From: Botryllus schlosseri
Taxonomy: Eukaryota
Assembly (NCBI GenBank): GCA_051294905.1
Contig: CM119384.1
Span: forward strand, 23,250,001-23,314,000
Length of the DNA: 64,000 nucleotides
Direction: 5' to 3'
The first letter of the stretch is position 1, and every line of letters begins with the position of its first letter. The position numbers and the translations under genes were made by a program. Shown piece after piece: positions 18,689-62,772 of this stretch. The notes beneath the pieces were generated by a model, which searched no databases, was not told the DNA's origin, and worked only from the letters and a program-made list of their open reading frames with translations.

Positions 18689-19100
18689 GTTCCCATGAAT
18701 TCGATTGCATGGTCGACATGAACTCTCATCCACGGCTTCTCAGGTAACATCCAAGGATGGATGCTTGCCTCCTTAGGAGCGTTCTGATTTTCACAGCATG
18801 AAACACATCTGTGACACGTGTCCACAATATCATTGTCCATTCGCGGCCAATACACAGCACTACGAGCAAGTTGCTTCATACGCTGCATTCCAAAATGTCC
18901 CAAATGAAGAATATCCAACACCTTTCTTTGCAGACTCGAGGGAATTACGATTCTCGCTCCAGAAAACAAACATCCGTTTTCAACAGATAAACATGTGGAT
19001 ATCTTACGAAAATCTTCAACCGAATATCCTTGATCTTTGGTGCTGGCAACATTTTCTGGCCAGCCCACTCTGGTGTATCTCATCACAGCAGAAATGACAG
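18689..19100 (-). pseudogene. pol: Integrase N-terminal HHCC region of the Mag-like element
   Basis: KDPVISAVMRYTRVGWP...LHLGHFGMQRMKQLARSAVYWP...CHRCVSC...RVHVDHAIEFMGT. Confidence 0.88.
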
Positions 19101-21806: not shown

Positions 21807-21904
21807 GCACTTGAAGATATGTACGTCTCACGAATAAAACTTAGTCGCACTGCAACCTCTTCTTGGAAATGTTGAAATAGCTCAGATCCCCTATATATCA
21901 CAGG

Positions 21905-26251: not shown

Positions 26252-26875
26252 TTAGCACTTTCTAGTCATTTGTGTTGACACTCGTCCATTTATATCGATG
26301 TTATTAATTTCCGAGGACAGGATGCTTGCACGGGGACGGATACACCTGCTGTGATACATTTGCAATATTTCACTCCGGTCGAGCAGTCTTTCCCAAATAG
26401 CAGAATTTGAGACTCCTCCTTGCAGAGAACATGCAGCATCGAAGCCAACTCCAATAGCATCCTGTTCCTGGCCGATGATAAATACTCCTCCTTCTCGTAA
26501 GATTCCAGGTGTGTGATTGATTTGCTGAATCAGTTCTCCATTAACAAATACGTAATGCTTTCCAGTAGTCGATGAAGCTGATGCAATGCACACATGGTCG
26601 TCACTACAGGTAGAAAAGGGTAATCGAACACCGATGACTTCGTTATTGATGCCGAAACGAAGTTCGTCTCCATCTGTGTATACTAGAAAAGCATTATGAT
26701 ATTGATGGTCGTGGTACGAAATTCAAGGGTTCAAGTTTTTCGAGAATCTTCTCATCCAAAAGCATGAGGTGAATTCTTTGTGATCTGGCACTGGAGTTTT
26801 GACCCTCAAATATTTGCGGGTTTGATCGCCACTTGGAAAATGATACGTCGATTGCGGGCAATCCAGGAGAAATAT
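26252..26875 (-). pseudogene. Pentraxin-domain exon with one in-frame TGA (26723-26725)
   Basis: One frame gives YHFPSGDQTRKYLRV...EFTSCFWMR...NP*ISY...HNAFL...DHVCIAS...YVFVNG...GGVFIIGQEQD...LQGGVSNSAIWERLL, a full pentraxin motif set. Confidence 0.75.
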
Positions 26876-35100: not shown

Positions 35101-37406
35101 TTTCGCTTCCACAAATCCGTAGTTGGTCAATATCAGCAACCCTAGATAGGATATTAAAGGTGACGAACCGTCTATTTAGCAGACTGTATGTTTCTTCCCA
35201 CGAGCTTTCGAGTATATCATTGACCTGATTGTCCTGTTGCGTTTTTAGATGGTAGTGATACTTTGAGCATTTCAACGCATGTTTATTTTTCAAAGGCATG
35301 TCATTGCATTCGGCCTCTAGGACGCATATCGGAGTGCTTCTCATAGCCCCAGTGCATATTCTGAGTGCCTGGTTACGAAATGTCTCGATTTTTGTTAGAT
35401 GCGTCTTGGGGGGCGAAAAAGTAAGCTTCCATACCATATTCTAAGACAGATCTAATAAGAGTTTTATATATAACTAACGGGGTTTCTTTACATGCGCCCC
35501 ACGATGTGCCACAAAGCATTCGCATAAAGTTAATTCTCTTCATACATTTGTCAGCGATATAGGTGATATGACGTTGATAAGTCAGTTTACTGTCAAAATA
35601 GATACCGAGGTATTTGAAAGAGTTCACAAACCGTATTGAATTTTCCCCCACATAGATCTCGGGCATTGTGTATTTTCTTTTCTTCGTGAATAAGATGGCC
35701 TCTGTTTTTTCGACAGATATGATAAATCCCCATTTTTCGCACCATCTTTGAATCTTGTTGAGGTCATCCTGTATTCGGTTCTTGAGATCCAGTACCTTTA
35801 GCGACGTCTCTCAGATAACACAGTCGTCTGCGTATAAACCAAATTGACAAAGCAATGTTGAGGGTAAGTCATTAATCATTATTGAAAACAAAATTGGACT
35901 AATTACACTCCCCTGCGGTATGCCATTCTCTAATATATACCTTTCGGATAGACTCGCGCCTACCCGCACTTGAAATGTCCTGTTTTGGAGAAAATTTGCT
36001 ATCCATGACAACATGTAACCGGCGACACCCATACATTTCAGTTTGAAGACATCTGCTTCCCGCCAGACCATATCATAAGCGCGCTGTATGTCGAGGAATA
36101 CTGCGAGTACGAATCTTCCATTATTGATAGCTTTGTATATATCATCGTGCAGCCGCATTACATTGTCCAGTGCTCGTCTTCCTCGTCTGAAACCACATAG
36201 TGAAGAACAAACTGTTGAATTCGTCGCAAAGTGCCAATTAAGTCTAGTCGTTATCATGGTTTCTATTATTTTGCAAAAGTGACTGGTCAAGGAAATCGGT
36301 CTGTATGAATTGGGCGACGACACATCCTTATTCTGTTTCGGTATAGGGATAACTATGGAATGCTTCCAGTCTTGCGGTATATCCCCTCTTGTCCATGAAA
36401 GGTTGATAATATTCAGCATATTTTTCAGTCCTCCAGAAGGAAGGTGTTTGAACATTGAATAACACAAGATATCTGCTCCAGGTGACGCATTCTTTTTTCC
36501 GTTTATCGCGATCAACAACTCCTTCATGGTAAATAAATCATTAAGCTTGTCGTTGCTTTCGGTATTTCTGGTACATTGTGGTACTACCAGTGGGATACTG
36601 CGTGTAAACGCTGGCGACAAATTACTGGAACTGCTTACTTTTTGGAAAGTCCGTGCAAGAACATCGGCTTTCTGTTTGCTTTCCGTGATATTCCTACCAT
36701 CAATCTTCAACGTTGCTACTGACGTGTTATTCGATTTATCAGAGAGAGATTTAACAACCCTCCCTACCTGTTGGAAATTGGCTTTATTACCGAGATTATC
36801 GCAATACGAAGTCCATGATTCCCGTTTGCATGCTAAAATTGTTCTTCTGCACTCGGATCTCATTTTCTTGAACTGTATTATGTCAGTAGGATTGAAGGAT
36901 CTTTTCATTTTGAGAAACGCAGCTTTCTTCCTTCGGACTGCCCTGGCACATTTGTCATTCCACCATGATTTCGGTGCCTTCCTATAGCTTCGCGTCATTG
37001 GAATTGAGAGGCTTGCTGCATGCACAATCCTCTCCGAGAAATCCGCTACCGCTTCATCAACGGAACGTTGATGTACGTTCTATTTTGGATAGGAGCGCAG
37101 AACAGATTTCAAGACCTTGCCATCCAAGCACTAGTAGACGTTCTCGTACGAAACCCAACAACTTGTCTGGCCGAGAAGGGTTTTAGTGAAATAGTTGATA
37201 TCAAAACGAGCGAAAGAAGTTTCCTTTTTAATGAGACACTTGATAGCTTAAGCTACATAGTAGCCGATTTGTTGCACATCTGAACGAAATGTTGTTAAGT
37301 ATCTTCATCTTCTTTTTTGTACAACGATTTTCGGTTAGTTTGTGCGAATGAAATTTATTTTGCAAAAAAAAGTGCGAATGTAGCTCAAAAAGGTTAAAAA
37401 GCACTG
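32190..37406. mobile_element. hAT-type element expanded to 5.2 kb by an internal LINE
   Basis: Termini CATTGTTTTTCAACC / GGTTAAAAAGCACTG; exact 8-bp TSD GGCTATAG; GTGCGAATG subterminal repeats at both ends. Confidence 0.75.
34167..37200 (-). mobile_element. 5'-truncated non-LTR retrotransposon, I/Nimb-like (RT + RNase H + CCHC), frameshifted
   Basis: SYRPISLTSHFCK, FLDIQRAYD, GIPQGSVISP, YADD; RNase H IFTDGSK...SAELIAI...ILSDC...WIPAHCGIQHNEIAD; C-terminal LRSGH...ETVDHYLIDC. Confidence 0.88.
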
Positions 37407-38884: not shown

Positions 38885-41800
38885 TAGAGAGAGAAAGAGA
38901 GATATATTTCTTCGTCAACCGGAATAAACAGAAAGAGTATGCAAAGAAAAAAAATACTCATAACAAAACAAAAAACACACAGTAATAATAGCGTGTAACT
39001 GGCTCTATAACGGTATAGACGGGTGCCGGCGATATGGTCCTTACGATCTTCATGTCAAGCCGGAACCTAGGAGATTAGAAACAAGTATATGGAATAGATA
39101 CATACACTCATGCTTACTAGTTATGGTGGTTTGTAAAAAAAAAAAAAAAAATAGAAAAACAACAACGAAATACATAGTGGATGCCTTGATGCAATAGTAA
39201 ATGGGGAATACATCCGATAGCGATTAGTACTTACTGAGAAGTAAGTCAAGGAACTCCGCCTTGAATGACGGAAAACTAATACTTTTCAGTCGCGGGGGCA
39301 ATTTATTCCACACATCGATTCCAGCACGCTTCAAGGGAGGAAAAGCATTATCGGAATTAGACATAAATAGGTTGGAAGAGCTCTTAGATCGAGTTCCGTA
39401 GCTGTGTATATGCATGCAGCATTCAAAGTAGTTTACAAGTGAATTTAGAACTTCTTGTTTGTTAAACTTATACATGAACTTTGCTAATTCAAAAATATAT
39501 ATGTCTTCAACTTTAAGAATGCGAAGTTTCGTATAATCTGGAGATAAGCGATGATAGATGGTCAGTCCAGCAATGGCCCGAATGGCTTTATTCTGCAGTA
39601 CTTGCAGTGCTTTCAAAATAGTTAGGGTTGCAGATCCCCACATAATATTACCATATTGCAAATGGCAGTGAACGATGGAGAAATAAAGACTTCTGAGCAT
39701 GGGCCTAGGAACAATTCTATTTAGTCGCCACAAGACACCAGTATTGCGAGAGATCTGGACGAAACATGACTTATATGGGTATTTCAACTGAGGTCATGGT
39801 CAATAAGAATTCTTAGATATTTCATTGTTTTGCAAAAGCACATCGCTTGACCAGTCATAATTAATTTGGGATTAGTATTGGAGAGTTCTTTTCTCCTTTT
39901 TTCTTTGCCTATTGGTAATACTTGGCTCTTAGTAGCATTAATGGACAATTTGTTACATGTGAGCCAGCTGCTGATAAGTTCAAGTAGGTTGTCAGTTCAT
40001 GTCAACAGATTTTGACTATTGGATGAGGATAGCAGTATGTGCGTGTCATCTGCAAAAAGGGTAGTGGCGAATTGTGAACAGGCAATTATATCATTAATAT
40101 ACAATAGAAACAAAGTTGGCCCCGAAATTGACCCCTGTGGTATACCGCAGGAGACAGTACAATAGTCAGATTTCTCTTGACCGATGACGGTATATTAGGG
40201 TTGTCCATAATTTGGAAAATCTCAAAAAAGATGCGTATCCATGCCTAATTCTGTAGAATATTGATAAAAAAAACATCAATGAACCTGCAATAAGCTCACG
40301 GGAAAGTCGTTAACATTTGTCTAAATACGTTTGAAAGTAGCTGCCGTAGAGTGGGCGTGTTAGCGACCATAGAACGGCGAGAAGACTAGTAATAACGAAA
40401 TCACGTCTCTTGATTGGTTAATCAGCAACGCTTGAATGGTCACGACCACGGCGGCTTGCTGATTATGTGCTTATACTAGTTCGAGAAGTTCGCTAACGGC
40501 AATGATTCTGTAAGCGCATTGTACGTTGGTGATTTAATAAAATGAGACATCTGGTCATTGAATGTTTTAGTGTTAAAACTAGGTACCGATAGCTTTAGTG
40601 CAACAATAGCCTATTGCAGGCATGACAGAGGTGAAACAGCGAATGATTGTGAACTCATAGAAGTAAGTATAGATACCAGAAATAGCCTATATATCTGATA
40701 TGCTTGAGATTACACCAAGTGGTCCTGTTTTCTGGGTGCAGGTAAGGCATATTAGACATCGCCGAACTGGTGCGGCATACTATGTGATATAGTTTCTGGA
40801 CACAATCCTGTATGCTCAGAAGATATGTGGGCCGACCAGGTAGCTTATATTGGATTTCTGAATAAGAATCTAACTACCACACCGCTTCAATACATCCTTT
40901 TTGTGTCCATGTCTGGTTTGATTCAAGAATTAGTAGTGATGCAGCCGGCAATGATCTAAGATTCATTAAGGACATGCTAAGCAATGCAAGCAACCTGTCT
41001 TTTTGCTGGTCCTACCAGCATAGTCTGTGCTTATCTTTAGACCTCTTTTCGCGGCATCATTGAGGACTTTGACAGCACTTGCGGGTATGATTCATTATGC
41101 AGCAATAATCTGACAAGTGCCAAGCATAAATGACAGATTCATCCAGCCCTTACAGCATTCAAGACTTCAATTATATACCACGACATCAGCCTAATAAGAT
41201 CAGACAAAGTAGTGTCAATGTCAAGCTTTATATTTGTATTCAATGATGGTACATCCCCTCTGAAACTAGAAATTCGTTTGCCACTTGCATAAGCGCCTTT
41301 GCAATATTTTTCCGCTTGTTTTTGTGCTTTCCATCAATGAAATCAAGGCATACGGGCTACAACGGTTACCTTCACAATAAGCCATCCAGTCATGTATTTA
41401 AAGATATTGTGAAGCAGCTGTTCTTTGTTCATCACGTGCTTCGTTACTCAACATGTTCTGAATTAATCCTAAATCATTATTGGCGGACCAACCTACAATG
41501 CGCTTACAGAATCACCACCGTTAGCCGACACCTTGACCAGCTGATCAACAAGCCGCCATTGTCGTGATCATTGAAGCGTAACAGATTAGCTAATCAAACG
41601 CCGTGATTTCGTGATTGCTAGTCTGCTCGCCGTTCTATGGTCGCTGACACGCCCACTCTACGGCAGCTACTTTCAAACGCATTTAGACAAATGTTAACGA
41701 CTTTCCCGTGAGCTTATTGCAGGTTCATAGACGTTTTTTAACTATAATCTATAGAATGAGACATGGATACAGATAAAATTTGAGATTTTCCAAATTATGG

Positions 41801-42570: not shown

Positions 42571-42616
42571 AAACACTGGAGTGCGCTACTCGCGATATTT
42601 ACGTTGTTACTAGAAA

Positions 42617-45600
42617 CAGTTGCATTGTGGGGAATAGGCTGGACGATTTAGTGCATGAGCATATGGAAAAACGTCCAGTTTTAAAATATATTTGATTCGT
42701 ATTGGGTTTGTAGTATTTTATACGAATGGAGCTTTGAATGAATAATCATCGTAACATTCAGGATTTGTTTCAGCCCAATATCTCGTGTTTATATCTGTGT
42801 TATCTGTGTATTTCGTCATGTCGAAGATATAAGTGGTTTCGATTGTTCGTGGTAAAATAAGGTTGTCTATATGTCATCGTATGTATTTTTTTGTGGTTAT
42901 ATTCCTGATGTAGATTGCTTTACTCGTTGTATCCAGCATATTTTACGTGTACAGAAATAACCAAGCTGTCAAAAGATGTATAATGCCAATTCAATTATCT
43001 TTCAGATATATGTATCTATAGGAAGTAAAAGCATCTACAATTGCCAGCTTGAAGTTATTATCGGAGCGTGCCTCAGAATTACCTATCCTGGATTCAAAAT
43101 CTTCATACTGCAATGGAGCTGATGTGAATGCTGTAACTGCCAGCTACGTGGTGGCTGTGAATATTGCTGATGGAGAAAATTCAGCATCATGGGACACATC
43201 AAAAGGCACTGCTGAAATCAATTGAATGCCATTGTAGTTATTCTACGTATTTATTGGTTCAGCGTATTTGAATAAATCCAAAAAAGAGAAAGTAAAGATA
43301 TGTCTGCTATGTGTAGCGATGGGGTAGTAATTTCTGTAGAAGTGACTGAATGAGTTCATTGAATGAGAGAAACAAGAAATGCATGGGTCCTTATTCAGAT
43401 GTAGCTAGAATTGCCAAATTCACAGTGAAATTGAGGCTATGTTAGTTACAGCAATCTGTGCACTGTGGGAGTTCATAATAAATATTAATTTTATCGAATC
43501 AATATGGCACAAGATACAATCCAAATGGCGTACATGTATTTGATCATAATTACAGCTATAGCTACCCATATACGTGTGTACATGAAGCTTGGCTCGTTTT
43601 GCACTTTCATGAAACCAGAAATTAGATTAGATACAAAACTAACTGGAGATGTGAACATTTCAACTCAGTTTTTCTGCCCACGATACTTGCCTACCCTACT
43701 AGATGAAGCACTCGAACCTGGCTTTAGATCAACCATTCCTGCGGTCACACGCAATAACGCGCTGTACTGCCTCGTCACACGAAAAACCGCGCTGTACTGT
43801 CTCGTACCAAAATGCTGAACTTTCGTTTTCAGAAACACCAGCTTCGGTTATGAGAAACGAATTTTTCTATTAAAAATAAAAACAAAAATAAATTAATTAA
43901 TTGTTATCGACTTTACGTCGCCTTTGGCGTAATTAACGGTGATTTGAAAGTCAACTGTGGGATAAGTTAGGGCTTAATATCTGCGAACGAGGTATAATAA
44001 ACGAACCGATTCTGATCTTAGTTCCAATTTAATGGAATTTCTTCTCTTCTTACGCAGCACAGGCACAGTCACATTGAAGGCCACCCCACTGCGGGGCCTA
44101 CGACGTCGTTTTGGGGCACTGTTCAAGATAAATGAACTAACATATGAGAAATTGTTCACTTGAAAGACACATTGATCGACATACCTTGATGTCACGACTA
44201 GGGCTGGGCACAATGATTCGAGTACTCGAATCTGAATCGAGTATTAATTTTAATGATTCGAGTCGAGTAGTAAAAAATGATTTTTTCGAGTACTGAAATT
44301 AAACGCGACTCGCCACTGAAAGTTAATTTAGCAACGAGAATTATAGTTTCGAATCTAATTTTCACTGTTGAGCCTTGAAACCTTGATTGGCCGTATCGTA
44401 GCATACGAAACATAGTACAAAGCAACGAACATTACTGGAAATAGCACATTTCCGAAGTCATGGTCATCCCACAGCATTGTCAGCAAGTGCAATGAAATTA
44501 GTAAGATCAAACCCAAGTATCTTTAATGTGATGGATAACAGGCATTATATTCTTTGTGGTGGCATTAAAGGTACATATTTGAATTTTAATGTATTGCATT
44601 CTGCTATTACGTCATAATGAGAGATACTCGATTACTCGACTCGACTCGAAGCATATTACGTGATTCAGAATCGAATCACTCAGGTACTCGATTTTGCCCA
44701 GCCTAGTCACGACAACGTTTTTATACCAAAATGCGTATAAAATAGTAAAGAAAGTGTGTTAGCCGGTGTCTTCTACGGGTTTGAAGTATGTGTTGGCTAG
44801 ACTTGCTCATCCTTGCTCCCTTCTTTGTTTTCTTATTATCTGTAAAGATACCAAAAACGGTTAGTACAGAATTACAATAATGAAAATTCTACGGCATACG
44901 AAGAAAGTGGCCTCACCTCATTCAGTGGGTTAGCCGGTGTCTTCCGTGGGTTTGAAGTAAGAGTTGGGTATGTAAATATTCTCTCTGGCAACGCAGGGTT
45001 GACTTCACAGCTTAGCGATGGTCGATTCCAGAACCTTTGAATGGAAAAGAAAACAGCCACGAGCAAGTATGGAATAAAGCGATAGGTACATCTGTGTACA
45101 AGAGCACATATCATATAAAGTATATATTCACAGTTTACCGCTAAAGGTATAGAATTATTACTCAACTATGCTGGACAAAACCGTGTGGCCCCTCAATTAT
45201 AATTTTCCTTCTAGTCCTACCTCCAACCTTCACGACAATTTTAAGCAAGGATTGAGTACTAAGCTAGTTATCGGCTGAACTGCCCATACAGAATACAAAC
45301 AAAGACCTGGCTGGTCATGCTATTACAGGTATACTGATGAACTGACATGGTGCTGAGACTGCTGATATAGTCTGCTCTGATCATACCAACATCCATATAC
45401 TTGTGACAAAATGTTCTGGTATAATGACACTTTGACATGGCCTATTCATTAATGCTGTGGCTTATCTGGACATTGATTGACTGTGATGGTCAGGAGATAT
45501 TAAAAATAGAAACTGATTCTTCAAAGATAGTCTTGCTGCCCTGCATATTCTGCCATTCACTCACCGGTGAAATGTTCTTGGATGCCGACGCTTTACCAAA

Positions 45601-45928
45601 GACTCTTCATCGCTACTACCATCGCTATTACTTCTCATATATGACTCCGTGGATATCTTTTTCTGCCGTTTACTGCACCCATAGGCGCAACAAACACTAT
45701 GCCACCAAAACGAGATGTCTTCGACATGTCGAAATACACAGATAACACAGATATAAACACGAGATATTGGGCTGAAACAAATCCTGAATGTTACGATGAT
45801 TATTCATTCAAAGCTCCATTCGTATAAAATACTACAAACCCAATACGAATCAAATATATTTTAAAACTGGACGTTTTTCCAAAAGCGCCTGTACTAAGTC
45901 GTCCAGCCTATTCCCCACAATGCAACTG
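42617..45928 (-). mobile_element. Inverted-repeat-bounded element with THAP-domain remnant
   Basis: ~210-bp inverted repeat 42617-42828 vs 45717-45928; minus strand 45560-45700 reads SVCCAYGCSKRQKK...RTFHR followed by a GTGAGT donor, and ~45410 reads EHFV (THAP motifs); no TSD resolved. Confidence 0.55.
44199..44705. mobile_element. hAT-type MITE rich in ACTCGA repeats
   Basis: TIR TAGGGCTGGGCA...TGCCCAGCCTA; exact 8-bp TSD GTCACGAC. Confidence 0.85.
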
Positions 45929-45959
45929 TAACATGGTGACAACGCAAATTTGCTTAGCC

Positions 45960-46117: not shown

Positions 46118-47000
46118 TGTCCTGATCTTGAACAATTATGTGATTTGGTTTCCGATTTCACTGTTTTGCTTCATTATCGTTTCATTTGTTACGATTGTAG
46201 CTTGATAAACGAAGTTATAAGTTGTGGACTTCTACATAATACAGTCTTCACCGTACCGATATATAAACCAACGGTATAGCATAATGGTACAACGTCCTGC
46301 TTCTTGATCGATAGAGGTCGTGAGTCGAATAGAGGTCGTGAGACCTGAAAAATTTGAACGCACGCAGTTAGGTGCAAATCATTCATAAATTCGGTCTAGA
46401 GCAGTGGTTCTCAACGTTTTTGTCTTCGCGGACCCCTTTTGTACCGTGATAGACCCCGCGAACCCCCGCAAGTTTTAAGTCAAATTTAGCTCAATTATCG
46501 TGCAACCGTCATCTTTCTTGTGCGAATATCAATTATAGGATAGTGATAAACAGCAACAAAATGACCGTTCTGGAAAACAATATCATCCTATGATATGCAA
46601 TGTTCCCTCTAAGCTGCGCACGTGGGCAAATGCGCAGTGCTGACACGGTCTCTGCGCACAGAAAATCAAAGCTGCGCACAAAAAATCCGAAGTGATGTCC
46701 TTTTTTTAGTCGTTATGAGTAGTTAGGTAAATGGGCGGAATGTGCGCATGCAAGGATTATAAAAAACAAACAAACATTATCAATATAATAAACAGTGAAA
46801 CAATTAGCTCATTCTCAATTTTGCAGCAATACTTTTATGACCCTGTGTGCGGCAATTAAAAAAGGGGAATAATTAACGATAGAGAGAAAACGAACAAAGA
46901 ATCTGGATTGACCTTTGTACTCGGACTTGAGTAAATCTACTTGTACTTTTCCACTCCTGATTCTACCTCGCCTCTGGACACGAGACTTGTGTATTATTTT

Positions 47001-47288
47001 TTATATTTTCCCTCGCACAACAATGGATTGACTTTTAATTTCAATGGTGTGCACGCCGACGAATCGGTATAGTTCTCCGGTCTTGACTTGTCGTTCCGCG
47101 GTGGGTTGATTAATCCAACTGCGTGTAAACACGATGGGATCTGGAAATATTTGTCCGTCAAACATGACGTCAGTATAGTATTTGTTCCTTCGGATCCGTA
47201 TGTGAGATCCCGGATCGTGATTTAGGTGGATTGTCAACGCGTTCGGCCAGACGAAACGATGTAAGGTGACGATTCTGGTCTGCGTCAT
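47001..47288 (-). CDS. Hypothetical 95-aa ORF near the Polinton left end
   Basis: ATG-initiated ORF, same strand as the viral genes; no motif recognised. Confidence 0.3.
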   Translation of the reverse strand: MTQTRIVTLHRFVWPNALTIHLNHDPGSHIRIRRNKYYTDVMFDGQIFPDPIVFTRSWINQPTAERQVKTGELYRFVGVHTIEIKSQSIVVRGKI

Positions 47289-47429: not shown

Positions 47430-47876
47430 TCACAAAGTAGATTTTTCTTTGTTTACAAAATCAAAAACGAGGCGATCATTCACACGTTTATCAGAACCAA
47501 AAGCATCTAAATAATCGAGGGTACCTACACCTTGACCTTTTCTAATTAGGAAAGCGATACAATGTTCGCCGCACACAAACGAACGTAAAGACTGTAATTG
47601 CACACTAGTGAAGGTATAATCGTCCGCGCCCAATAACCTATAGATCTCCTTCTTCAGAGGCGGAATCCCGAAAGAGTCGTGAAAGTGCGTGCCATCTTGA
47701 TCGGCGAAGATACAGATCCAATGCGAGCCGCCCTTCGCGTTAGGGTCGTAATTGATAACGACTGCGTACGGCTTAAGTAGCTTTGCTGGCAATAAATCGA
47801 TAGCGAAAGTCCCGGGAAATAAATCTCGCGTGTCGCGATGATTGAATAAAATATGATTAATTTGGTCGGTGTTCAT
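47430..47876 (-). CDS. Adenain-like (C5) maturation cysteine protease
   Basis: Starts MNTDQI at an ATGA overlap with the MCP stop; GGSHWICIF (His), FHDSFG (Asp), QLQSLRSFVCGEHC (Gln/Cys). Confidence 0.9.
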   Translation of the reverse strand: MNTDQINHILFNHRDTRDLFPGTFAIDLLPAKLLKPYAVVINYDPNAKGGSHWICIFADQDGTHFHDSFGIPPLKKEIYRLLGADDYTFTSVQLQSLRSFVCGEHCIAFLIRKGQGVGTLDYLDAFGSDKRVNDRLVFDFVNKEKSTL

Positions 47877-49131
47877 ACGGACACTACTTCGCGCTTCTCT
47901 GAGATCTCCAAGAGTTGTTGGTATTCTTTGAGACACAGTAGAGTCGCTCGTTCCGGCAACCCCGCGGTCAGGGTCATGTGAAGCTTCACGGACCCGGTCT
48001 TCTCTAGTTGAAAGCAGCCTTGATGCGTACGGTCTGGGGTCAAATCGAACGCAAACAGAGTGTATCCCGCCTTATAATTCTCAGAGTCGATAAAAAGATC
48101 TTCCTGAGCATCCCACTTCCCGGTGGATTGGTAGACGCTGAAAAACCCCTCGAGGTTTGTGTTTTTATCAAAGTCGAATCTGAAATTACGCCCGTACAAA
48201 AGTTTCCCGTTCACGTTGATAGCCAGATTTCCGACGTGATAGTGACAGAAATTGAATGGGTTTCGAGTCTTACTACCGTTATAGGCAGCGGTCGGGACCA
48301 GACCAATCACGATTCGTCGAGGCGTGACCCCGGAAATCAACGTTTTCTCAATGGAGGTATCACCCGCTCCAAAAGAGTGATTACTCATTTCGAGCTTTAT
48401 AATAGGGTATTTCGCCGTGTGCGTACGAAGCATTGTTTTGTGTGCCAAACTGACAGAGTCTGAAACTTGAATTTGCTTGACGTGCAATTCCACTTTTTTC
48501 AGTATGATTTTAGAGTCGGCAGACCCGAGGAGACAGAAATCGTCATCGTTACGGATTAATCGCAACGACAGATCCACGTTATCCAGTAAATATCTGTCCT
48601 GGTCGAATAAACCGAGCGGTATCTTGCCGATGACCTCGAGCGTTGCACTGCCAGCGGTCAGGGCTTTACGTGCCGTGAAGCCGACGTTGTCTGCCGTGAA
48701 AGTATCCTGCTGTTTCATCGTATCTGGGATCCAGCCGATACATTTCAGATAGGTTTCGCCGGCCGCGCGAGAGCTATTTAGTAGATGGAAAATGAAGCTT
48801 TTGTAGGCGTGATTGGTGTCCGATGTGGTGATCAGCTTCGAGCCCAGATACAGATCGATCTGCTTGAATAAGGCGTCGAATATATCCGACACGACAGCGA
48901 CGTTGTCTGCCCCGATCGTGGTGCAATCTTTTTTGGTAACTTGCAGTTGTATTTTCATAAACGAGCTGGACAAATCCAAGTAATGATCGCTACCTTTCAC
49001 GTTAATCTCAATGACATCGCCCAATTTATCCGGTGTAGCGATCAACGTGCTAGTGTCGGCGACCGCCGTTTGCGTCGGGGGTATCCGCTGTTGAGGCACT
49101 CGGCCGAATTTTCGTGCATCAATTTAGCCAT
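47873..49131 (-). pseudogene. Major capsid protein (double jelly-roll, hexon-like) with N-terminal frameshift
   Basis: MAKLMHENSAECLNSG then frameshift to PPTQT...IEI...HYLDLS...NPFNFCHYHV...GYTLFAFDLTPD, typical Polinton MCP motifs. Confidence 0.88.
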
Positions 49132-49522
49132 CGAATATATCTCTCCGTCTACGTTTCTTGTTTGACGTAGTACCTCCCCGCGCGCCCTTTTTAAGCTTTT
49201 TCGTGGCTTTTCGTTTACGACCCCCGATCGCGGTATCGAGAAGCTGTAGACCTCCTTCTTTACTCCGTGATATAGCGGATTGCTTGAACGAGCGCCCGGC
49301 CACCAAATCTTTCGCGATATTTGATCCGGTACGGAGGATTTGTTTCCCCAGTATCTTGGAGCCTTTTGACACTAGAGGTAAGACCGCCCGGCCTATGGTT
49401 CGAAAAATCGACGCGAGTCCGCTACCGCTTTGTCTGGACCCCCGATAAAACCCGTAATTCCCAGCCCCGGTCTGATAGTGGTGCAATACGGCTTCTCGGT
49501 CACAACAATAGTGCACTTTCAT
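49124..49522 (-). CDS. Basic, amphipathic virion protein (pVI/pX- or cupiennin-like)
   Basis: QTGAG and QSGSG motifs, amphipathic GLASIFRTIGRAVLPLVSKGSKILGKQIL, Arg/Lys-rich tail; located between penton and MCP genes. Confidence 0.65.
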   Translation of the reverse strand: MKVHYCCDREAVLHHYQTGAGNYGFYRGSRQSGSGLASIFRTIGRAVLPLVSKGSKILGKQILRTGSNIAKDLVAGRSFKQSAISRSKEGGLQLLDTAIGGRKRKATKKLKKGARGGTTSNKKRRRRDIFDG

Positions 49523-49884
49523 AACGACACCCTGAGATGTATCGTGAGGTCCAAACCCGAGATGTCCAATAATTCACCATACTCGTCCCTTATATAGATG
49601 TAGAAATACTCGAAACGGTCGAGTCTGACTTTGGCGTAGTATCGATTTTGAAATATATGGTTTTGTCGCTCTCCCTCGTGTAGCGCAACGACTCTTAGCA
49701 ACGGGACCAAAGCGTCACCCACCGGCGTCGACTCGATGTCATTACAGTAGATAAAAGCGTAGAGGCTTTCGCACGACTCACGAACAAAGTATATCTCCAT
49801 AAGAGCAATCTCAAGACCTTTACAATCCATTCCGTGCGGGAGGGTAAATACGGGGCCGTCACCGGTCAGTGTTTGGAACGTCAT
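49519..49884 (-). CDS. Minor capsid (penton-like) paralogue 3, minimal 121 aa
   Basis: FTLP...EIALMEIYF N-half and FIYCNDIESTPVGDALVPLLRVV...IYIRDEYG...LTIHLR C-half with no insert. Confidence 0.75.
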   Translation of the reverse strand: MTFQTLTGDGPVFTLPHGMDCKGLEIALMEIYFVRESCESLYAFIYCNDIESTPVGDALVPLLRVVALHEGERQNHIFQNRYYAKVRLDRFEYFYIYIRDEYGELLDISGLDLTIHLRVSL

Positions 49885-50638
49885 CTCGTAAGTGAAGGGT
49901 CAATTCAATGTCACCACATTTAAGTTCTTTTCCAAGAGAATCTCTTATGCTGATGCGTACGCTACGGAAGCTGTTGGCATCGGCGGGCAGGTAAAACGGT
50001 TTCCTGAATGATACGTGCTGTCGTTTCATTTCCGGTACCGTAACGGGGATGATTCGTAGAAGTCTGGACATATAATCACCTACCGGGAGATGGCGCACGC
50101 AATCGCAATATATAAATAAATACTGAGATTTTACTATCGACGGAATATACCACACATCGAATTCAATGTACTCAACCTCGCGTAATGAGATCGGAACCTC
50201 TCCCTCCTCCGCGATGATGTCGTCAATATCGTATCTCTGATGCTCGTGTATGAGACGGTAGTTACCGAAATTCGCGTAAGGCCCGAGCGTAGATGCGAGC
50301 AGAGAAGAATTCGGTGGAAATCCCTCGCATACCAATCGATTCTGGCTGGGCGTAAAGTACCAGTGATAGCCGTTCACGAGTTCCGCGCTAATTCTTTGCA
50401 TTAATTGATCGATATTATCGAAATCTCCGGTGGGTAACTCATAGACTTCGGTGACGTCTTTGACAATCGTATTCCAGAAGCTCATGGCCGGGGTGGGTTC
50501 TGTGATTACAATTCTTTCTTGAAAGTCATGATTGAAGCTAATTTCTCGGAGAGCGATCTGTTTACCCTCCGATTCGATTTCAACCGGTAATTCAACCGTG
50601 AAATCGGGTCCGCTTCCGAATATCGTGATATAGCTCAT
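49859..50638 (-). CDS. Minor capsid (penton-like) paralogue 2
   Basis: FTVELP...IALREISF; LFIYCDCVRHLPVGDYMSRLLRII...ISIRDSLG...LTLHLR. Confidence 0.8.
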   Translation of the reverse strand: MSYITIFGSGPDFTVELPVEIESEGKQIALREISFNHDFQERIVITEPTPAMSFWNTIVKDVTEVYELPTGDFDNIDQLMQRISAELVNGYHWYFTPSQNRLVCEGFPPNSSLLASTLGPYANFGNYRLIHEHQRYDIDDIIAEEGEVPISLREVEYIEFDVWYIPSIVKSQYLFIYCDCVRHLPVGDYMSRLLRIIPVTVPEMKRQHVSFRKPFYLPADANSFRSVRISIRDSLGKELKCGDIELTLHLRDDVPNTDR

Positions 50639-51438
50639 AACGCTTTGACGGCTCCTCGACGGATCAGTAAAGTCACTGTAACGGGAGCTGTTTTAAACGC
50701 GACAGGGTTATTGTTCTTGTCACGAAGATATACTCGTATATTTCGAATATTACTCTTGGCCAGGGAAAAAAAGTAAGGTTTATCATATACACAGTGCTGT
50801 ATTTTTCCTTCTTGCGCGGTGACCGGAACGCTTCGAAGGAGAGGTACTAGCTCGCTGCCAAATACACGAGGTCTGATCAGATCGGTGTATATATAAATGG
50901 TGTCTACATCTTTCACGATGGTTTTCGGTCTGATTAAGAACTCTATTGGTTTTTGTTTCTTCAAAACATGATGTTCCACTGTAAAATAACGCGGAAACGT
51001 GTCCTCGATGCTGGTGAGACGCGGACCCGCACCACTGATTTTTTTGACCCGTATCAAGGGCTCGTCGGCCTGTGGAAATCGACTCTTGAGATACCTAAAG
51101 CTCAAGCCGAACACGCCACCGGTATATTGCTTGATTGTAATTTCTTTCTCGTATCGCAAGCGAAACTGTTCCAACAGATCCGGGACACTGCGATACTTGC
51201 CGGGCGGTATGTAATACACGTGACGATGGCCGCTGTCAGAAAATTCGATACCCGCACGCTTGTGGTCTACCGTGAACGTGGGCTGGAAGCTCACTGGGAA
51301 CATGATCTCAGCAAGCGATGCCTCATATCTTTCTGTATCATATTTTAACTCGGAGAATAGTTGGGTTACAAAATCGTTCGCGGTGTTACCCTTAAAAACG
51401 CTCATTGAAGAATTACTCGGTAAAACCAGAAGAGTCAT
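50635..51438 (-). CDS. Minor capsid (penton-like) paralogue 1
   Basis: LVLPSNSS...GNTANDFVTQL...EASLAEIMFP; IYIYTDLIRPRVFGSELVPLLRSV...VYLRDKNN...VTLLIRR (canonical Polinton penton motifs). Confidence 0.85.
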   Translation of the reverse strand: MTLLVLPSNSSMSVFKGNTANDFVTQLFSELKYDTERYEASLAEIMFPVSFQPTFTVDHKRAGIEFSDSGHRHVYYIPPGKYRSVPDLLEQFRLRYEKEITIKQYTGGVFGLSFRYLKSRFPQADEPLIRVKKISGAGPRLTSIEDTFPRYFTVEHHVLKKQKPIEFLIRPKTIVKDVDTIYIYTDLIRPRVFGSELVPLLRSVPVTAQEGKIQHCVYDKPYFFSLAKSNIRNIRVYLRDKNNNPVAFKTAPVTVTLLIRRGAVKAL

Positions 51439-51631: not shown

Positions 51632-52632
51632 TTATACAAAACCGTCAACGTAAGAGTCCATCGATTTCGGATAACCCTCCCAGCGCACTAGATATCTCCG
51701 CTTGCGCCCCCTACCGACCACTTTCTGTATCGATTCTACGCGATAGACATCGTCTTTTTTATCGATGGCTTGTAATTCACTCTCGTAGAATGTTCCTCTA
51801 ATCACGTCCCCGTTATAATCTCGGATGGTGTACGTAGCGGGGCTCCCCCATTTCCGTGTGTGTACGTAGAATATCTCGCGAGTCCAAGACCCCGCTGTAC
51901 CTTTTGCAAACGTGGCACGTCGGGTGGTAATTCGGACTGGTTGATCGGGGGATAGCTTGGGTGACACCGGAGGTCCGGTTCCGTTGTATAATCTATCGAA
52001 CACCAGAGACGCGTTGCTATTGGTAACCTCCGACGGTCGCATTAAAATCGCGGTGTGATACGTTTGGTTATAGCTCTCTGCGATATCACACAACACGTCG
52101 ATGTAGCGACGTGTGCGGTTCTTGACAAAGTAGCGATTCAATACGTTGCGGGTCGTACGGATTACCCGTTCTACGATGCTAGCCTTAGTATCGCTGTTGG
52201 TAAAAAAGTGCTTGACGTGGTTGTCTCTAAAAAACCTCTGTATAACCGACCCCGTGAATTCTTTCCCGGCATCGGTCTGAACGACGTGTGGCCTCTTATG
52301 TGCGAATACCTGGTTGAAGCCCTCGATCATATCTACGGGACGCTTTCGCTTCGTCGCGTGTAAAACATATATTTCGAAAAACAACAAATTGACACCAACA
52401 CATAACGGTAGCCGTCATTGCTACTAGAAATATTAGACAAGTCCATGAGGTCACTCTGGATCTGAATGAATGGCCCGCCGACGATCGTCTTCTGGCGTTG
52501 AAATTTGCCTGTATACGGATAGAATAGGGTGTAGCTATCCTCTTGTTTCAAATCCTTCTTGTCGGGGTGTAGGTATTTACCGCGATAGCTCGCCGGCGCT
52601 TTGATATCAAAATATTTATCCTTACTCGTCAT
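51632..52632 (-). pseudogene. Retroviral-like (rve) integrase with C-terminal chromodomain, frameshift ~52360
   Basis: IQSDLMDL...YVLVSICCFSKY / VQTDAGKEF...KASIVERVIRT; YRVESI...YLVRWEGY chromodomain. Confidence 0.9.
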
Positions 52633-53481: not shown

Positions 53482-56400
53482 GTGGCGTGTACAACACGAG
53501 TTCATCCCCAGGAAACACCCCTGTTTTAACACGACTAGAATCTGGTGTGGCTTGCGTCAAATCTATAAAAAGGTACCCGTGAGCGTTCTTTGTCGCGTCG
53601 GCATACGCGTCAACTAGAAATTTTGAGTTACCGGGGAACATTTGATTGCCAAGAACCCGAATCTGAGATCGATCTCTAGAATTACGCATGATAATCAAAT
53701 ACTGGGTGCTGAGACTGAGGTCCCTCGATCTTTTGGACTGGAAATATAGATTTTGTACCGCGAATATTGTGGTCACCGAGCCGTGATTCGCGTAGACTGT
53801 AAAAAAGGGGGTCACCCATGGCCTACTAAAAACACGGCCTTACAGTCTGCCTATTGACCTGAAAATTAAGAGGCCAGCTCCGAAACAGTGTAAATCTCAC
53901 GGTTATACCTACGCAGATGGTAAGTAGCGCGCAAGTCAAAACCACAAGTGGATTCTGACCAGGATTTATTGTGTTAAGATGATGGAATATCGTTTTAACA
54001 CGGAAACAATCATTTTAGTCCCAAAAGAGCTGCTGGTCAGGTGGATAACCCACTGATATCACTGCAAAAACTCGTGCGGATGAATACAGTTGTTGTAGTT
54101 GTTGTTGTTGAAGAAGTCAAGACATTTGCAGTTGTGCGGGTTCCACCGTGTGTTGTTGTTCGTCGCATTGCACTTGTTTCTTTCGCTGTCTAGACTCTAG
54201 AGTATATTCAAGAGCTAAGGGTCAGTATTATCATTTGATAAGTTAGTTGGCAATCAGGTTACGGTTCCTCGACAGTGCCAGCGGTTCAAGTTGACGCGAA
54301 GAACGTCGTGTTCGAACGGCTCCATTGTAGTATCATAATCTGCTTTCTCGCAAACATAGTCTTGGATACGGTAGTCTATTTGACGAATTGTATAACTGGT
54401 AGCTTTGGTTCTAAGACATTTATGATGACGAAGGCATGTTCATTGTAACTGTTTCTATAGAATTTCATTAATTGTTGCAAGGCTTGGATATGGTGCTGTG
54501 GCGGAATACTATTTTAAAGTGATATATACTTATAGGCTGATTTGTTAATAGGCTATTCATTTTCTAGTGTAGTTAATAGGCGATGGCCGATGGTTCTTAA
54601 GTGCTGCGTGGTTGGTGTACTTTTGGATATACTACTGTGAAATCTGCCAAAGTCTCAAGCAGGGGATCAGCATGTTACGTACTATGAGCTATGTTTGGAA
54701 GGCTTTCCAAAAATCAAGAATGCCATGAAAATTGACGTCAATTGAGGGTGCAGATGCAGCATAATGGGATACCTGTGCCTTTACCAACATGGTTCCGCAC
54801 AAGCAAGAATACTCTGCTCAAAAGGAAATGCGAGCTACTAAACTTCCCAAGCTATTTGGATAGTCTAACTGATCCGGATCCCGAAGTAGATATTTTAGAG
54901 GAGCTGCGTAATCTAAGATACCACAAGGCTGGAAATACTCTGGCATCATCTAGCACTATGATCCGGTACTGCTTGCTTTTACGTTCTATTTCTTGCCAAG
55001 CGTACAAGACACTTTTGGAAATGTTCCCTATGCCATCTTTGAGCTGTTTGCGAACAAGACTAAAGGGACTGTTGATTTTTCAAAGGCCATGGAAATTTCT
55101 GAGGATGTCATTGTGATGGTGGATGAAATGTATCTGCAAAAATTGTGCAATATCATGGTGGCAAATGTTATGGTGCTGATGAAGACGGAAATATTTGCCA
55201 AGGCGTTATAGTGATAATGATCAATGGACTTGAAAAATCGCTTCCTTTAGTCCTACAAATTTAACCAGAAACACAAGTTTAAGGTGCCTCGTTAACGCAA
55301 AAGCTGTCTGATCTCGGATCTAGGATTTAATGCGAGAGGTATTGCTTCTGACAACCACAGCACCAACGTTCGTGCTTTCAATATGCTGTCATCACAGTTA
55401 GGATCAAACTCCGAGTTGTTCATCAGTCATCCAAGTTGCAAGACAAAAATCTATCTATTTTATGACAACATTCATTTGGTGCAGAACCTTCGCAACAATC
55501 TACTGAATGCTAGGAGATTTTCCTTTCCATCATTATATATCAAAGGTGGCGATATATCCATAATTAGCCCTTCTGGTTATATTGCATTGCAATTGGAGTG
55601 TAATTTGCGAATGGCTCCAAAGCTAACAAAAAAGCACTACATCCTGGCCACAACAAGCAGAACGTCAACCTGGCACTGGCTATCTTTGATGAAAAAACCA
55701 TAGCAGCTTGCTCCAAATACCTTCCAGATAAGGCGGATACCTATTGCTTCATCAAAGTCATACATATGTGGTGGAGTGTTGGAAACAGCAAGCAGAGGTA
55801 CTTCCCTAATAGTCTTGGTAATGCTGTCATTCTACGGACTGCACCGAGTGTAGCTTACCCCTCACGACTGATGAAACCGAAGAGGAATATGATGAATATT
55901 TCAGTTTGGTGGATAGGCCTAGGGGACGGTTGACTGTACCTGCCGTTCAAGGTGGCCCATTTTGTATTTGATTCTTTCGCAGTCCTAGATTCAGCTAATC
56001 AGCTCATATCTAACCGTGGCACTGTTCCTCTGCTCCGTGCAGCATTATGTGTGTTGAAAGTTGTGTTAGGTAAATCCTGAATTGGTTGTAATGCACATAG
56101 TGAAAATAGGCTAGTACAAATGTCACGTTCAAAAAAATTGGGAACATTTTTTACAATAGTCAGCAAAAATTTGCGAATTCCTCACTAAGTGAATTTCGCC
56201 AATTTAAAGAGAGGCAAAGGCAAAAGAAGTGATTGTCCTGTAAGGCTGTGATATTTGTTCCCTAAGGCTCTAATTCAAGAGTTTCTCTACCCATTTTTCA
56301 TTGATTATACAAATTTCGTTCCTAATTTTTTCGTTATATATTGCTGCAATATACTATTTTTTACATACATTGTGCACCGGCGTGTTAGTAGAGTACCAAA

Positions 56401-56842
56401 GACAGGTAGCATTATGACAATATCGCATTTTCTGACCAATTGAGTGCACAGCTGGTAAGGGTTGGAAAGTTGACTATAGGCCTCTTAATTTTCAGGTCAA
56501 TAGGCAGACTGTAAGGCCGTGTTTTTAGTAGGCCATGGGTCACCCTGTCCGAAAATTCCATTTTATCGTCAATAATTAATAGAGTAGGACAGGGGCGGCT
56601 TGTCGCCAACTCATCCAAAATGGAGAGATCCGAGTAAAACTCAACGCCTTGCAGCTCGTTAAAGGTGTCTTGGTAAGCCGTATAGCAATAGATAATTCTT
56701 TTCGCCCCTTTGAAAGCTGATCGATATTTTTTATGACTTTAAATATAAAAGTACTCTTCCCCGAAAACGACGGTCCTGCCAAAAGACACGACCTCCCTGT
56801 CGAGAAATCCATCACCAAGGCTGTTTTGACACGACGAGACAT
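53477..56842 (-). pseudogene. FtsK/A32-type packaging ATPase split by a P element and frameshifted
   Basis: Walker A GPSFSGKS, Walker B LLIIDD, then SDRVT|PFFTVYANHGSVTTIFAVQNLY after removing 53817-56537 plus one TSD copy. Confidence 0.88.
53817..56537 (+). mobile_element. P-superfamily DNA transposon (degenerate THAP transposase)
   Basis: ~59-bp perfect TIR CATGGCCTACTAAAAACACGGCC...; 7-bp TSD GGTCACC; MVLKCCVVG THAP start (~54590); MPSLSCLR, VMVDEMYL, FYDNIHLVQNLRNNLLN remnants. Confidence 0.88.
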
Positions 56843-58777: not shown

Positions 58778-61700
58778 TCATAGTTCCAAGGATCTCGTAT
58801 GAATACCGTATGATTCGACTATTCGTTTACAGTAGAAGTGAGACAGGGCCGATCGAAATTGCTCATAGGTAAAAATGGAAGCATTTTTCCGCACAAACCC
58901 AGAATTAACATCACCATGTGGTTTTTTCTCAAACAAAACTTTCCGGTAGATGTCAGCAGTCAGTTTGTTTACTTTTGAGAGCCCTTTACATGAGTACTTA
59001 TCCTCATTGCAATAATAAGTCTTTGCGGACAGACCAACGAAAATTTTCGATTGCGCCTCAATTTTGAAAAGACCACTGGTCCGTTGATCATATCGATTAC
59101 GAGCTTTACAACAGGCACGTTTATCATTGAACGAGAGAGGATTGGCCAAAAATTCATTACGGTGCTCGTCACAGGCGATTGCTGGAAATATTTGTGAAAA
59201 TTTTCCAAAAATTCTGCTTGTTTTTCTGGTCGTACAACTTTTAGCAGACTGTCAGAGGAGATAGCCCCGTACCAGCTGTCCGTGTCTGAATATGCTAGTT
59301 CAATGGACCGTGGCAGGAGGTAGGTAGACAGATACGAATGGAACCGTAATAAGGCCAATTTCGCATAACCATAGACAAAGTACCCAATGTGGTTAGGTTG
59401 GCTCCAAACATGTTTTCTCAATTTCATGGACACCTCAAAAATATCTGGTGACAACTCAATCATCGATTTAAATATGGAGTCATTTACCAAGACCATAGCT
59501 TTTTGGCGGCCAACAATCTTGACATCAGAATATTTTGTACAATTCGAGATAGTCTTCCTTATACAGGAGTTTCCAATGTCTTTATAGAACTGCCCCAGTG
59601 GCTTCTGAGACGGGTCATCGTCAGCCCGTCTTCTAGCCTCGGTTATCGTATCTACAAGAGAATTGAAACATTGAATGGGTTCAAACTCGACAGCTTGATA
59701 TACCTTAGTAATAATTAACCCGTTCTCTAGATACCACTTCAATAGTGGTGTTATTAACAATGTTTTTGTGGCCTGCAGAGTAGCAATCAAGAATTTCCGT
59801 GGCCGTTTCAAAAAACCATGTTGTTCAGCAAATGCTTTCATGTACGGTCCTATATCATCACGACTGACGTAAGCATGTTTGAACAGGGGACAGAAATCAC
59901 TAAAATGCTCTTTGAGATGACTAGGCACATGAATGTCGACCTCAACGGCCCCAAAAAATTGATCTTTTGACACCAACTCCAAGAGTTTCGAACTTGAAAG
60001 GACTCGACATTTCACCATTTTACTGGATTCGAGAGTTTGAATAAAGGTAGCTATATCACTTCGCTGGCGCATAACGACCCATTGACATTCTGTGATGTAC
60101 TCCAATTTATACCCCACTTTTTGAATATACTGGATTTTACGCTGCGTCGCGGCCCAGCGGGCTTGACGATCCGGGCTGGCTCCCAACTCGCAGCCGTGAC
60201 CGTGGTGAAAACATCCAAACAGCTCAAGTGCAACAGGCCCTTGTGGGGTCCTATAATACCCATCAATACAAATCTGGAGCAGGCCGATACGATGCTCAGG
60301 ACCATTGAATTGATGTTGGATTTTGACCCCCCGACAGTGCGCAATGTAGCTTAGCCATTGGTGAGCCATTTTTCCATAGAGCGGTGCCGTTTTTGTCCTG
60401 GAGAATAGAGTAAAATCTTCATTAGGTGACCACAGACAAGGATAGCCCCCCGGTAATCGTGAACGGAGAGTATCCAAATAGAGGCAATTCGAATCTAGGC
60501 CTAGCACCTGTTCTACAGGTAGAGCGTTATCACCATAGATTTGGGGTTTGATTTTTGTGACTTTAGCCTCTGCATATCGCAATGAAACAACAGAAAGCCC
60601 GCCACGTAGATTTTCACGTATCAAGGTGTGTATATGGCTATACTTTTGATTCAACAAGGTGAATACAGGTGGTATGCTATTAAACACCAACCGTGAGGCT
60701 AGCGAGGGCAAAGATATACCATGTTTAGCCATGTCAATTGAGTAACGAGCAAAGAGTTGCTTGTGCTTTGTGAGGGCCTCCAGTAACGGCCCGACATCTA
60801 AACTGACATAGAAAGATAGATAGTCACGAAAAGTAGTCATTTTATGTTCTACCCACTTTGATTGACACCAAAGATATTGTTCATCAGTTATATTAGACCG
60901 TTTCAGTTTGTTATAGAAATGTATGTGGTCTGGGAGAGATTTTTCATCCAATACTGATAAATCAGTGAAATAGTTATATGGAAAAAAAGCCTTCGTTGAA
61001 GCACAGTTATGAGAACGTATGTATGCGTCATAACTTGTACCGGCGCCGAGATACAAGGTCACATCCAAAAATCGAAACCGGTTAGTCGACAAAGACATAT
61101 ACGATGTGCCCCTCTTAACAATACTGATAGGGTCTGATAAGTACTCCACCAGATATGGGATAATCAAAGGTATATCATAACGAGACCCATTGAAAGAGAA
61201 TACAGGTAATTGACTCAAATAATTCAAAAAACGATGTTTCAATAAGGTCGCTGGGCTCATACGCTTGACATCAGGCTCAGCGGTATGCATTTCCTCAGCA
61301 ATACAATCTAATCGCTCCAACACGTCATGAAATTGCTGACATAATGACTGAAAAAAATCACTTTGGATCAATTCAAACCGTGACATCATCCTAGCGACCA
61401 GCGCTCCAGGGTCGCCATCACTAATCAGTACTTCTGGAGTCTCGTACCCCGGGAAATTACAGGCGAAGGCCACTGCGGCCGGGATATGATGATCTACATA
61501 GTGCACATTAGCAGTATCGTTTGGAGTCGAGCCTTTTTGTAATATACTCTCATAGTCAAAAACCAAGTTATACGGGTAGAAACGAGAGGGTTTGGGCACA
61601 ATTATACCCAACTCGTCCAACGCTTCAAATATAGTAGGCTCAGGCTTGAACATACCCCCACGGTAGTGGTTAGGAATGTCTTTAAAACAATTATGACGAT

Positions 61701-62658
61701 CGAGATAATATTTTGAGCTGAACAGGCGATGACAGGTCTCACAGCTATAATTCTTGCAATATAAGTTCAAATTTTTAATATAACAAAAATGTCTCCCTCC
61801 CTCTAAATGAACGTGAATTTTCAACCCCTCCCGAGCACCGTGTCGTAGTATATACCCGACTCCTTCTTTCAATGTATAAACACAGATAGATACTTTAAGA
61901 CACGACTCGACTTTATCTAGGTCGTTCATACACACCCCAGATGCAGGGTCCCCATATAAAGAGGAATATTGTGCCACCAGAGAGAGTGTTTTAGATTGTA
62001 AGGCATCATCATCACGATAATTACCACCACAAAGCATAACAGCAACACAACGGAAAATACAATAATGATCGTCATATGGTACACCACGTCGATTTTTCAT
62101 TAAATCCAAAACACCATGTGAATTCACAATAGACTTTGGTATTTCGATTGTACTACACCCTATTAATCTGAAGTCAGATTTGTACACGTAAAAGGTCACG
62201 TTTGTGACTGCCAAGACAACAAATTTAGTATCGTCTCTTTGAAAGCGAGCACTCTCGAAGCCCGCGGCCAGGTCTATATCGCTTACAAATTGGTCAAAGT
62301 CACTACGATTGGCAATCATTTTAGGTGTATCCAACATAACACCTGCGTTCTCGGACGCATGATAGTATCTCAATTCGCTTGTCTCAACATTATCAAGTAG
62401 GAACCCCAGGGCGTAATTGATACGAAAACCATACTGTTGTGAGACGAAGATGTCCTGTAGATCGTTGATGACGTCACTTGGGCTGCGGCCGAGTATACGG
62501 AAATTGTGTAGACTGCGTATACTGTGCGGTGCGAGTGTGGAGCTGCGAATGGAGTGCCAGTTTTCTTCCACGATCTCGATCAGATTTTCAGGTATACCCA
62601 AGCTGCTTGGTTGTGCAAAATCAGACACAATTCTAAAAAGGTTTCGTCGCCTAGACAT
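58778..62658 (-). pseudogene. polB: Protein-primed family B DNA polymerase (pPolB), 1-nt frameshift ~59185
   Basis: Exo motifs VFDYES, FNGSRYD, YVSLDV; Pol motifs LDSNCLY, K..GNS..RKT, YSDTDS; C-terminal GLFKIE...LSAKTYYC...KGLS in the second frame. Confidence 0.92.
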
Positions 62659-62772
62659 TCTGGAAACAAAAAAAAACACAGATTCAATAACAGGTAGCAC
62701 AAAACAGACATAAATACATATGATATTACAACATAAGCATGCGATAAAAACACGATAGTACATCAAAAACAG

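Follow-up and report, generated by a model that had tools for sequence, protein, structure and literature searches.

Three adjacent penton genes, two encoding proteins with long inserts and one encoding a predicted bare jelly-roll, are present in an integrated Maverick (Polinton, adintovirus) of Botryllus schlosseri. This triplet is not a one-off but fixed and under purifying selection in four element families of the genome. The set of three genes appears to be new, whereas penton duplicates, insert-less forms and hetero-pentamers are each known already. The element was found in a stretch of 64,000 nt (contig CM119384.1 of assembly GCA_051294905.1, positions 23,250,001 to 23,314,000 of the forward strand), in the following called the window.

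An integrated Maverick with three penton genes

The element comprises the following features (coordinates in the window, strand, description).

46718..47011, no strand: terminal inverted repeat starting with AGTAGT; partner at L151:1518-1810 (92%, 303 nt)
47430..47876, minus: adenain-like protease, 148 aa, assigned by position and by a match to the same slot in related loci
47873..49084, minus: major capsid protein (MCP) gene, 5' end disrupted in this copy; 424 aa in sister copies
49124..49522, minus: PW-like basic core protein, 132 aa, position conserved; termed Cupiennin in Buck et al.
49519..49884, minus: bare penton (ORF3), 121 aa; predicted single jelly-roll with an 8-aa DE loop, probably derived from type 2
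49859..50638, minus: penton type 2 (ORF2), 259 aa; without LxSN segment; 137-aa DE-loop insert at nt 50123-50533
50635..51438, minus: penton type 1 (ORF1), 267 aa; PX-like, canonical, LxSN segment kept; 132-aa DE-loop insert at nt 50902-51297
51632..52632, minus: integrase of the rve type plus chromodomain, broken into two frames here and 333 aa long in sister copies
53809..56545, no strand: secondary insertion of 2.7 kb that carries 67-bp inverted repeats; sister copy L024 lacks it
58969..62763, minus: protein-primed DNA polymerase-like ORF, 1264 aa, putatively assigned by motifs and position

The three penton genes belong to an integrated Maverick. Its module order of integrase, minor capsid (pentons), PW, major capsid and protease is that described in vertebrate Mavericks (PMC8097293), and the hallmarks of terminal inverted repeats with AGTAGT ends and a 6-bp target duplication (PMC8097293) are present as well, with the element spanning from the AGTAGT-ended repeat at position 46,718 to the matching repeat, which lies 1.8 kb beyond the window's end, and with the 6-bp target duplication on both sides. 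Pfam models rve and Chromo match the integrase weakly, below cut-off, and a profile of the integrases from the four families marks the same slot in metagenome Maverick loci. The conserved MCP ORF of 424 aa has relatives at the MCP position in 29 metagenome loci. For the 1264-aa ORF, a putative protein-primed B-family polymerase by its motifs and position, no Pfam family was obtained at E ≤ 1. Outside the pentons, the window copy is damaged, as the integrase is split, the MCP 5' end is disrupted and the 2.7-kb element is inserted. The insertion at 53809-56545 contains transposase-like ORF fragments resembling the P-element/THAP type. In samples of three raw RNA runs (3-13% of each), no reads were found between 48,616 and 52,247, whereas a few fell on the ends of the element. 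The penton region is covered by X1 contigs, which may be DNA.

Further features were noticed in the window, the retroelements and an exon by eye. A Gypsy-like LTR retroelement occupies 14911-21827 on the minus strand (gag-pol at 19083-21827, integrase parts at 18631-19119 and 14911-15804). Located between the two integrase parts, at 16619-18364, an ORF of 581 aa has the look of a membrane glycoprotein (env-like). Further segments (7629-10937, plus strand; 34167-37079, 39224-39793 and 26252-26722, minus strand) bear what looks like another gypsy-type element, pieces of LINE-type reverse transcriptase and an exon resembling pentraxin. Just outside the Maverick, 215-nt inverted repeats (96%) at 42616-42830 and 45715-45929, lying 2.9 kb apart, likely belong to another DNA transposon.

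Relationship and fold of the three pentons

The three adjacent ORFs of 267, 259 and 121 aa are at the places given by the initial annotation, all open and all on the minus strand. They are tightly packed, with ATGA overlaps at ORF1/ORF2 and at ORF3/PW and a 26-nt overlap at ORF2/ORF3, and no poly(A)-like hexamer was seen between the three genes. That they are paralogues, as initially proposed, is borne out by pairwise BLASTP (E values of 5e-11, 8e-07 and 1e-15; identities of 23%, 26% and 32%) and by local alignment scores of 126, 76 and 142 against shuffle maxima of 63, 52 and 55, with 0 of 1000 shuffles scoring as high. Profile-profile comparison of the families gave probabilities of 99.5, 98.9 and 99.3 for the three pairs, those with ORF3 being 98.9 for ORF1 and 99.3 for ORF2, and core identity among the three is 27-39%. 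Pfam assigned 0 families to ORF1, ORF2 and ORF3, so that the additional copies will escape annotation pipelines that look for a single minor capsid gene. Likewise, ORF2 and ORF3 had no match in a word-indexed homologue search, a search of the PDB by sequence gave no meaningful match, and scans of viral_contigs no confirmed relative.

The inserts comprise 132 aa in ORF1 (48-179) and 137 aa in ORF2 (36-172), while ORF3 has only 8 aa (34-41) at this site and is thus insert-less, as initially noted. In contrast to the initial description, the two long inserts are not entirely unrelated: their first about 43 aa align (hhalign score of 30.7, compared to a maximum of 18.8 and a mean of 11.3 in 30 column-shuffled controls), and only the remaining about 85 aa do not. 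A common N-terminal motif had also been put forward. The N-terminal halves of ORF2 and ORF3 are clearly alike (45% identity, probability 97.6), but the motif as a pattern is loose and matches 0 of the 3 proteins, and likeness is weak between ORF1 and ORF2 (probability 39.6) and below detection between ORF1 and ORF3 (probability 0.6). ORF1 carries an LxSN segment that 64 of 79 single full-length relatives also have and that both ORF2 and ORF3 lack, hence only ORF1 looks fully canonical. Mapped onto the ORF3 model, the insert sites of ORF1 and ORF2 lie after the third strand (24-35) and before the fourth (42-47), in the DE loop, with strand letters as assigned within this analysis. As the C-termini of ORF1 and ORF2 extend at most 10 aa past the last strand, their decoration is internal.

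The claimed penton identity and bare jelly-roll of ORF3 agree with structure prediction. The model obtained from an 86-row alignment is an all-beta, eight-stranded jelly-roll (pLDDT 87.7, pTM 0.80), and comparison with 48,161 solved chains (VIA) gave 7 rows with Z ≥ 8, every one a penton or vertex protein: Sputnik (11.9), mavirus (11.9), PBCV-1 P1 (11.7), EhV-201 (10.7), PBCV-1 P1v1 (9.9), SGIV (8.1) and aviadenovirus (8.1), the next row being at 6.7. For rows without 'penton' in the title, the vertex role of the chain is that given in the PBCV-1 paper or commonly assigned to it. At Z 11.9, 118-121 residues align with an rmsd of 2.4-2.5, and overall 112-121 of the 121 residues align to solved pentons, indicating that the whole fold is kept. 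P31 of PRD1/PR772 is absent from the 50 VIA matches listed. Foldseek against the PDB gave no row at E ≤ 0.001 for ORF3, the best being the PBCV-1 penton at 3.3e-03, and the best match in the viral library is a 161-aa Drosophila-associated adintovirus protein (E 3.6e-07). For ORF1, the shallow 10-row alignment resulted in a poor model (pLDDT 40), hence the penton fold of ORF1 and ORF2 rests on their homology to ORF3, from which we infer that both probably share it. A further lead on this fold comes from the atlas, PF21507 V18-19 with a score of 0.96, and concerns 26% of members.

Element families and selection in the genome

Searching the genome with ORF3 gave 20 matches at 98-100% identity, a few at 59-60% and more than 100 near 40%. 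These represent four families (A-D) with MCP identities of 48-80%, all having the order long-long-bare. Copies with all three ORFs open number 18 of 20 in family A, 18 of 25 in family C and 5 of 8 in family D; copies were chosen by the ORF3 search, so that the intactness of ORF3 itself (53/53) is inflated. Among these copies, piN/piS is 0.07-0.35 in the cores and 0.24-0.53 in the inserts. In family A, constraint is strongest on ORF3 (0.07), and ORF2 is the most variable among copies; in family A, 50 of its 137 insert columns vary compared to 11 of 122 core columns (piN 0.034 versus 0.008). No positive selection on inserts was seen, their piN/piS being below 1. In the comparison of family A with family B, synonymous differences have reached saturation (pS 0.77-0.79), against a dN of 0.22-0.29. 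In one family-A copy (L023:4086-4865), ORF2 is 85% and ORF3 99% identical to the window's, with the differences clustering in the insert, which suggests possible allele exchange between copies.

A search with a generic penton revealed further families. Among 14 loci examined, 11 have two long pentons without a bare one between integrase and PW, and 3 belong to family C (two triplets and one degraded copy). None of the 8 families examined in the genome has lost either of the long types, across MCP identities of 32-35%. In the capsid (MCP) tree, the triplet families (support 97) are sister to the doublet families (100), with a support of 100 for this sisterhood, and both stand apart from the 29 metagenome elements. 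Triplication as the norm across the clade, which by the initial annotation would refute its reading, is found within these four families and not outside them, so that this objection holds in half. In the core tree, ORF2, the second gene of the doublets and ORF3 form one group (96/92), which argues for a derivation of ORF3 from type 2, and the insert of ORF3 is deleted exactly at the DE loop in four families. ORF3 itself falls into two groups in this tree, a single origin not being rejected (p-AU 0.26). Gain of ORF3 in the triplet clade would be the simpler reading, the alternative being its loss in the doublet clade.

Relatives outside the genome

The ORF3 profile retrieved 3,347 library proteins at E ≤ 0.001, the full-length top matches being mostly single pentons of 200-320 aa. 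Ten of the 150 best matches hold two units in one ORF, and 6 of these are of a bare+long type (P0005, P0011, P0019, P0037, P0128 and P0137). Five of the bare+long fusions are 30-44% identical to each other, with a Met at every junction; P0128 derives from the anemone Actinostola and is annotated only as hypothetical (KAK3743572.1). These fusions branch apart from the window's clade in a weak penton tree (quick search over 89 columns, 97 of 173 forks open). The long+long matches P0002, P0003, P0022 and P0145 may be gene-calling joins and were excluded as evidence. Short pentons are not rare, as 30 clusters without a name lie close to ORF3 in the atlas and the three best of them measure 120-138 aa. 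A type-2 long penton (P0004) and a 114-aa bare one (P0012) come from Logan contigs of equal length (16,433 nt) and likely represent one element of another organism with the same pairing.

In metagenomes, a survey with a long-penton query, which could miss a very divergent bare gene, gave 171 confirmed loci, of which 80 were kept and 34, including several near-copies, were bracketed by flanking genes. Among these 34, one penton is present in 32, two long ones in 2 and three in 0. ORFs in gaps of more than 250 nt encode PW-like or small membrane-like proteins, plus one unassigned product of 71 aa. A small hydrophobic ORF (79-154 aa, LGYLLPxP-like end) was observed between integrase and penton in L042, L052, L054, L059, L061, L066, L076 and L093, and a segment resembling it precedes the penton in P0130.

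Possible arrangement of the pentons in the capsid

Tentatively, and with somewhat less than an even chance in our estimate, we propose that the three pentons co-assemble into mixed five-subunit corners in which the long types would form a fixed pair and the bare type an optional spacer. Mixed rings are favored because both long types are never lost in the 8 families, because another lineage links bare and decorated units covalently in fused ORFs, which would place both jelly-rolls in one assembly, and because core identity among the three (27-39%) far exceeds that of PBCV-1 P1 and P1v1, which assemble separately. The jelly-roll bases would stay compatible between paralogues and the inserts, assumed to bind receptors, might form an asymmetric crown on the vertex for which the bare subunits would leave room, as P31 does beside P5 in PR772. 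The scaffold role initially suggested for the bare subunit is not an essential one across the clade, as the sister clade lacks the bare gene; being optional at clade level, the bare unit is better described as a spacer. Nor does the bare fold demand partners, since short pentons serve alone in SGIV. Counting against mixed rings are the sister clade without the bare gene, the separate sorting of the PBCV-1 pair and the origin of the fusions from other lineages. Historically, an old duplication would have produced types 1 and 2, type 2 would then have lost the LxSN segment and, in one subclade, would have duplicated again, with the copy losing its insert to become ORF3.

A wider claim is that vertices are asymmetric assemblies of three penton subunits with an insert-less spacer, and that the bare+decorated design has arisen independently several times in Mavericks and their relatives, converging on tectivirus P5/P31, which we regard as rather doubtful. 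Supposed independent cases would be the tunicate clade described here, the fused protein in an anemone lineage and the spider-associated Adeno7806. In the fused family, the junction Met could give two fused dimers and one free long subunit, equal to the 3:2 ratio of PR772.

Unlikely, but foremost among the alternatives, is the formation of separate homopentamers at different vertices of one particle, in which case the common vertices would carry a bare or small penton and a special vertex, for entry or packaging, a decorated one. PBCV-1 offers a precedent, as P1 and P1v1 form separate homopentamers at 11 and 1 vertices, the larger DE insert being at the unique vertex (PMC9617893). The matches of ORF3 to P1 (Z 11.7) and to the 139-aa SGIV penton (Z 8.1) and the conservation of each penton type as its own lineage would also suit such sorting. 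However, separate homopentamers are impossible for the bare+decorated fusions of other Mavericks, a different vertex class would be required for each of the three types, and the common vertices of the doublet clade would be left without a bare form.

The LxSN pattern, by which ORF1 alone looks canonical, would also be compatible with ORF3 (and perhaps ORF2) acting outside the ring, as a vertex cap, adaptor or assembly chaperone on or beside the type-1 penton, and ORF3 is dispensable in the sister clade. Such a role appears improbable, as ORF3 keeps the whole fold, with 112-121 of its 121 residues aligning to solved pentons, and, in family A, is under stronger constraint than the other two.

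Slightly less probable still is the initially proposed switchable vertex, carrying one decorated type or the other per particle for alternative receptor use or immune profile. Amino-acid variation is indeed higher in inserts than in cores (50/137 versus 11/122 columns in ORF2 of family A), but insert piN/piS indicates purifying selection, neither long type has been lost or replaced in the 8 families, and no switch is visible in the packed genes with their overlapping stops and starts and without a poly(A)-like hexamer in between. Recent near-identical penton duplicates do occur elsewhere (L077/L079, P0022), yet neutral duplication with ORF3 as a decaying deletion product has next to no probability and is largely refuted by purifying selection at saturated synonymous sites, by the confidently predicted ORF3 fold and by a deletion placed exactly in the DE loop in four families.

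Comparison with known systems

The statement in the initial annotation that this architecture cannot be matched to a described animal Polinton was too strong, as duplicates, insert-less pentons and a two-penton sister are already on record; only the set of three genes with a bare member was not found in print. PX, lying one gene from the MCP, is the penton of Polintons (Krupovic 2014, PMC4028283), and PX or the adintovirus Penton is usually present in one copy (32 of the 34 bracketed metagenome loci), in contrast to three here. According to the accessible text of Buck et al. (2024, bioRxiv 2024.03.25.586562), an insert in the DE loop is typical for pentons, some lack it, and a few adintoviruses have duplicate pentons. 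In the supplement of PMC11071296, Penton1 and Penton2 are annotated in at least 7 genomes, among them two of the doublet type found here and Adeno7806, where a short Penton1 adjoins a long Penton2. Adintovirus botryllus10012 (BK066506) and Adinto11189 resemble the window's sister clade in having Penton1 and Penton2 between integrase and Cupiennin/PW and, unlike the window's element, show no third, insert-less gene in their accessible annotation. By eye, the pentons of the former are near-identical to a two-penton family of this genome (L164/L170/L172). 'Penton3' and four N-terminal motifs of the triplet families have 0 occurrences in the accessible part of the PMC11071296 supplement, and the accessible text of PMC11161782, PMC10748475, 10.1101/697771, 10.64898/2026.10.13.758929, 10.1101/2022.07.28.501842, PMC9952930, PMC11131425 and PMC6905037 mentions no multi-penton Maverick. 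Neither a report of a three-penton Maverick, which supplements or subscription papers may hold, nor a structure of a Maverick particle was found in literature searches.

The vertex is where such viruses attach and uncoat, and a clade whose elements carry one, two or three pentons within a single host genome, with many open copies, provides a natural series for the question of mixing versus sorting. Solved capsids provide a case of each. PBCV-1 P1 and P1v1 are, as in the window's element, penton paralogues differing in the size of the DE insert, but this giant-virus pair shares only about 10% identity, compared to core identities of 27-39% among the three pentons here. In SGIV, a short penton (139-aa chain) serves alone. 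The penton of PR772, on the other hand, consists of 3 P5 and 2 P31 (126 aa), the latter proposed to relieve steric hindrance (PMC6750898). The bare jelly-roll P31 beside its decorated paralogue P5 in PR772/PRD1 resembles the 121-aa ORF3 beside ORF1 and ORF2, whereas P5 is decorated by a C-terminal trimeric (collagen-like) stalk or spike and not by an internal DE insert. If the Maverick pentons mix, a way of breaking vertex symmetry known to date from the solved structure of a bacterial virus would extend to animal viruses, from two penton types in a 2+3 heteropentamer to three.
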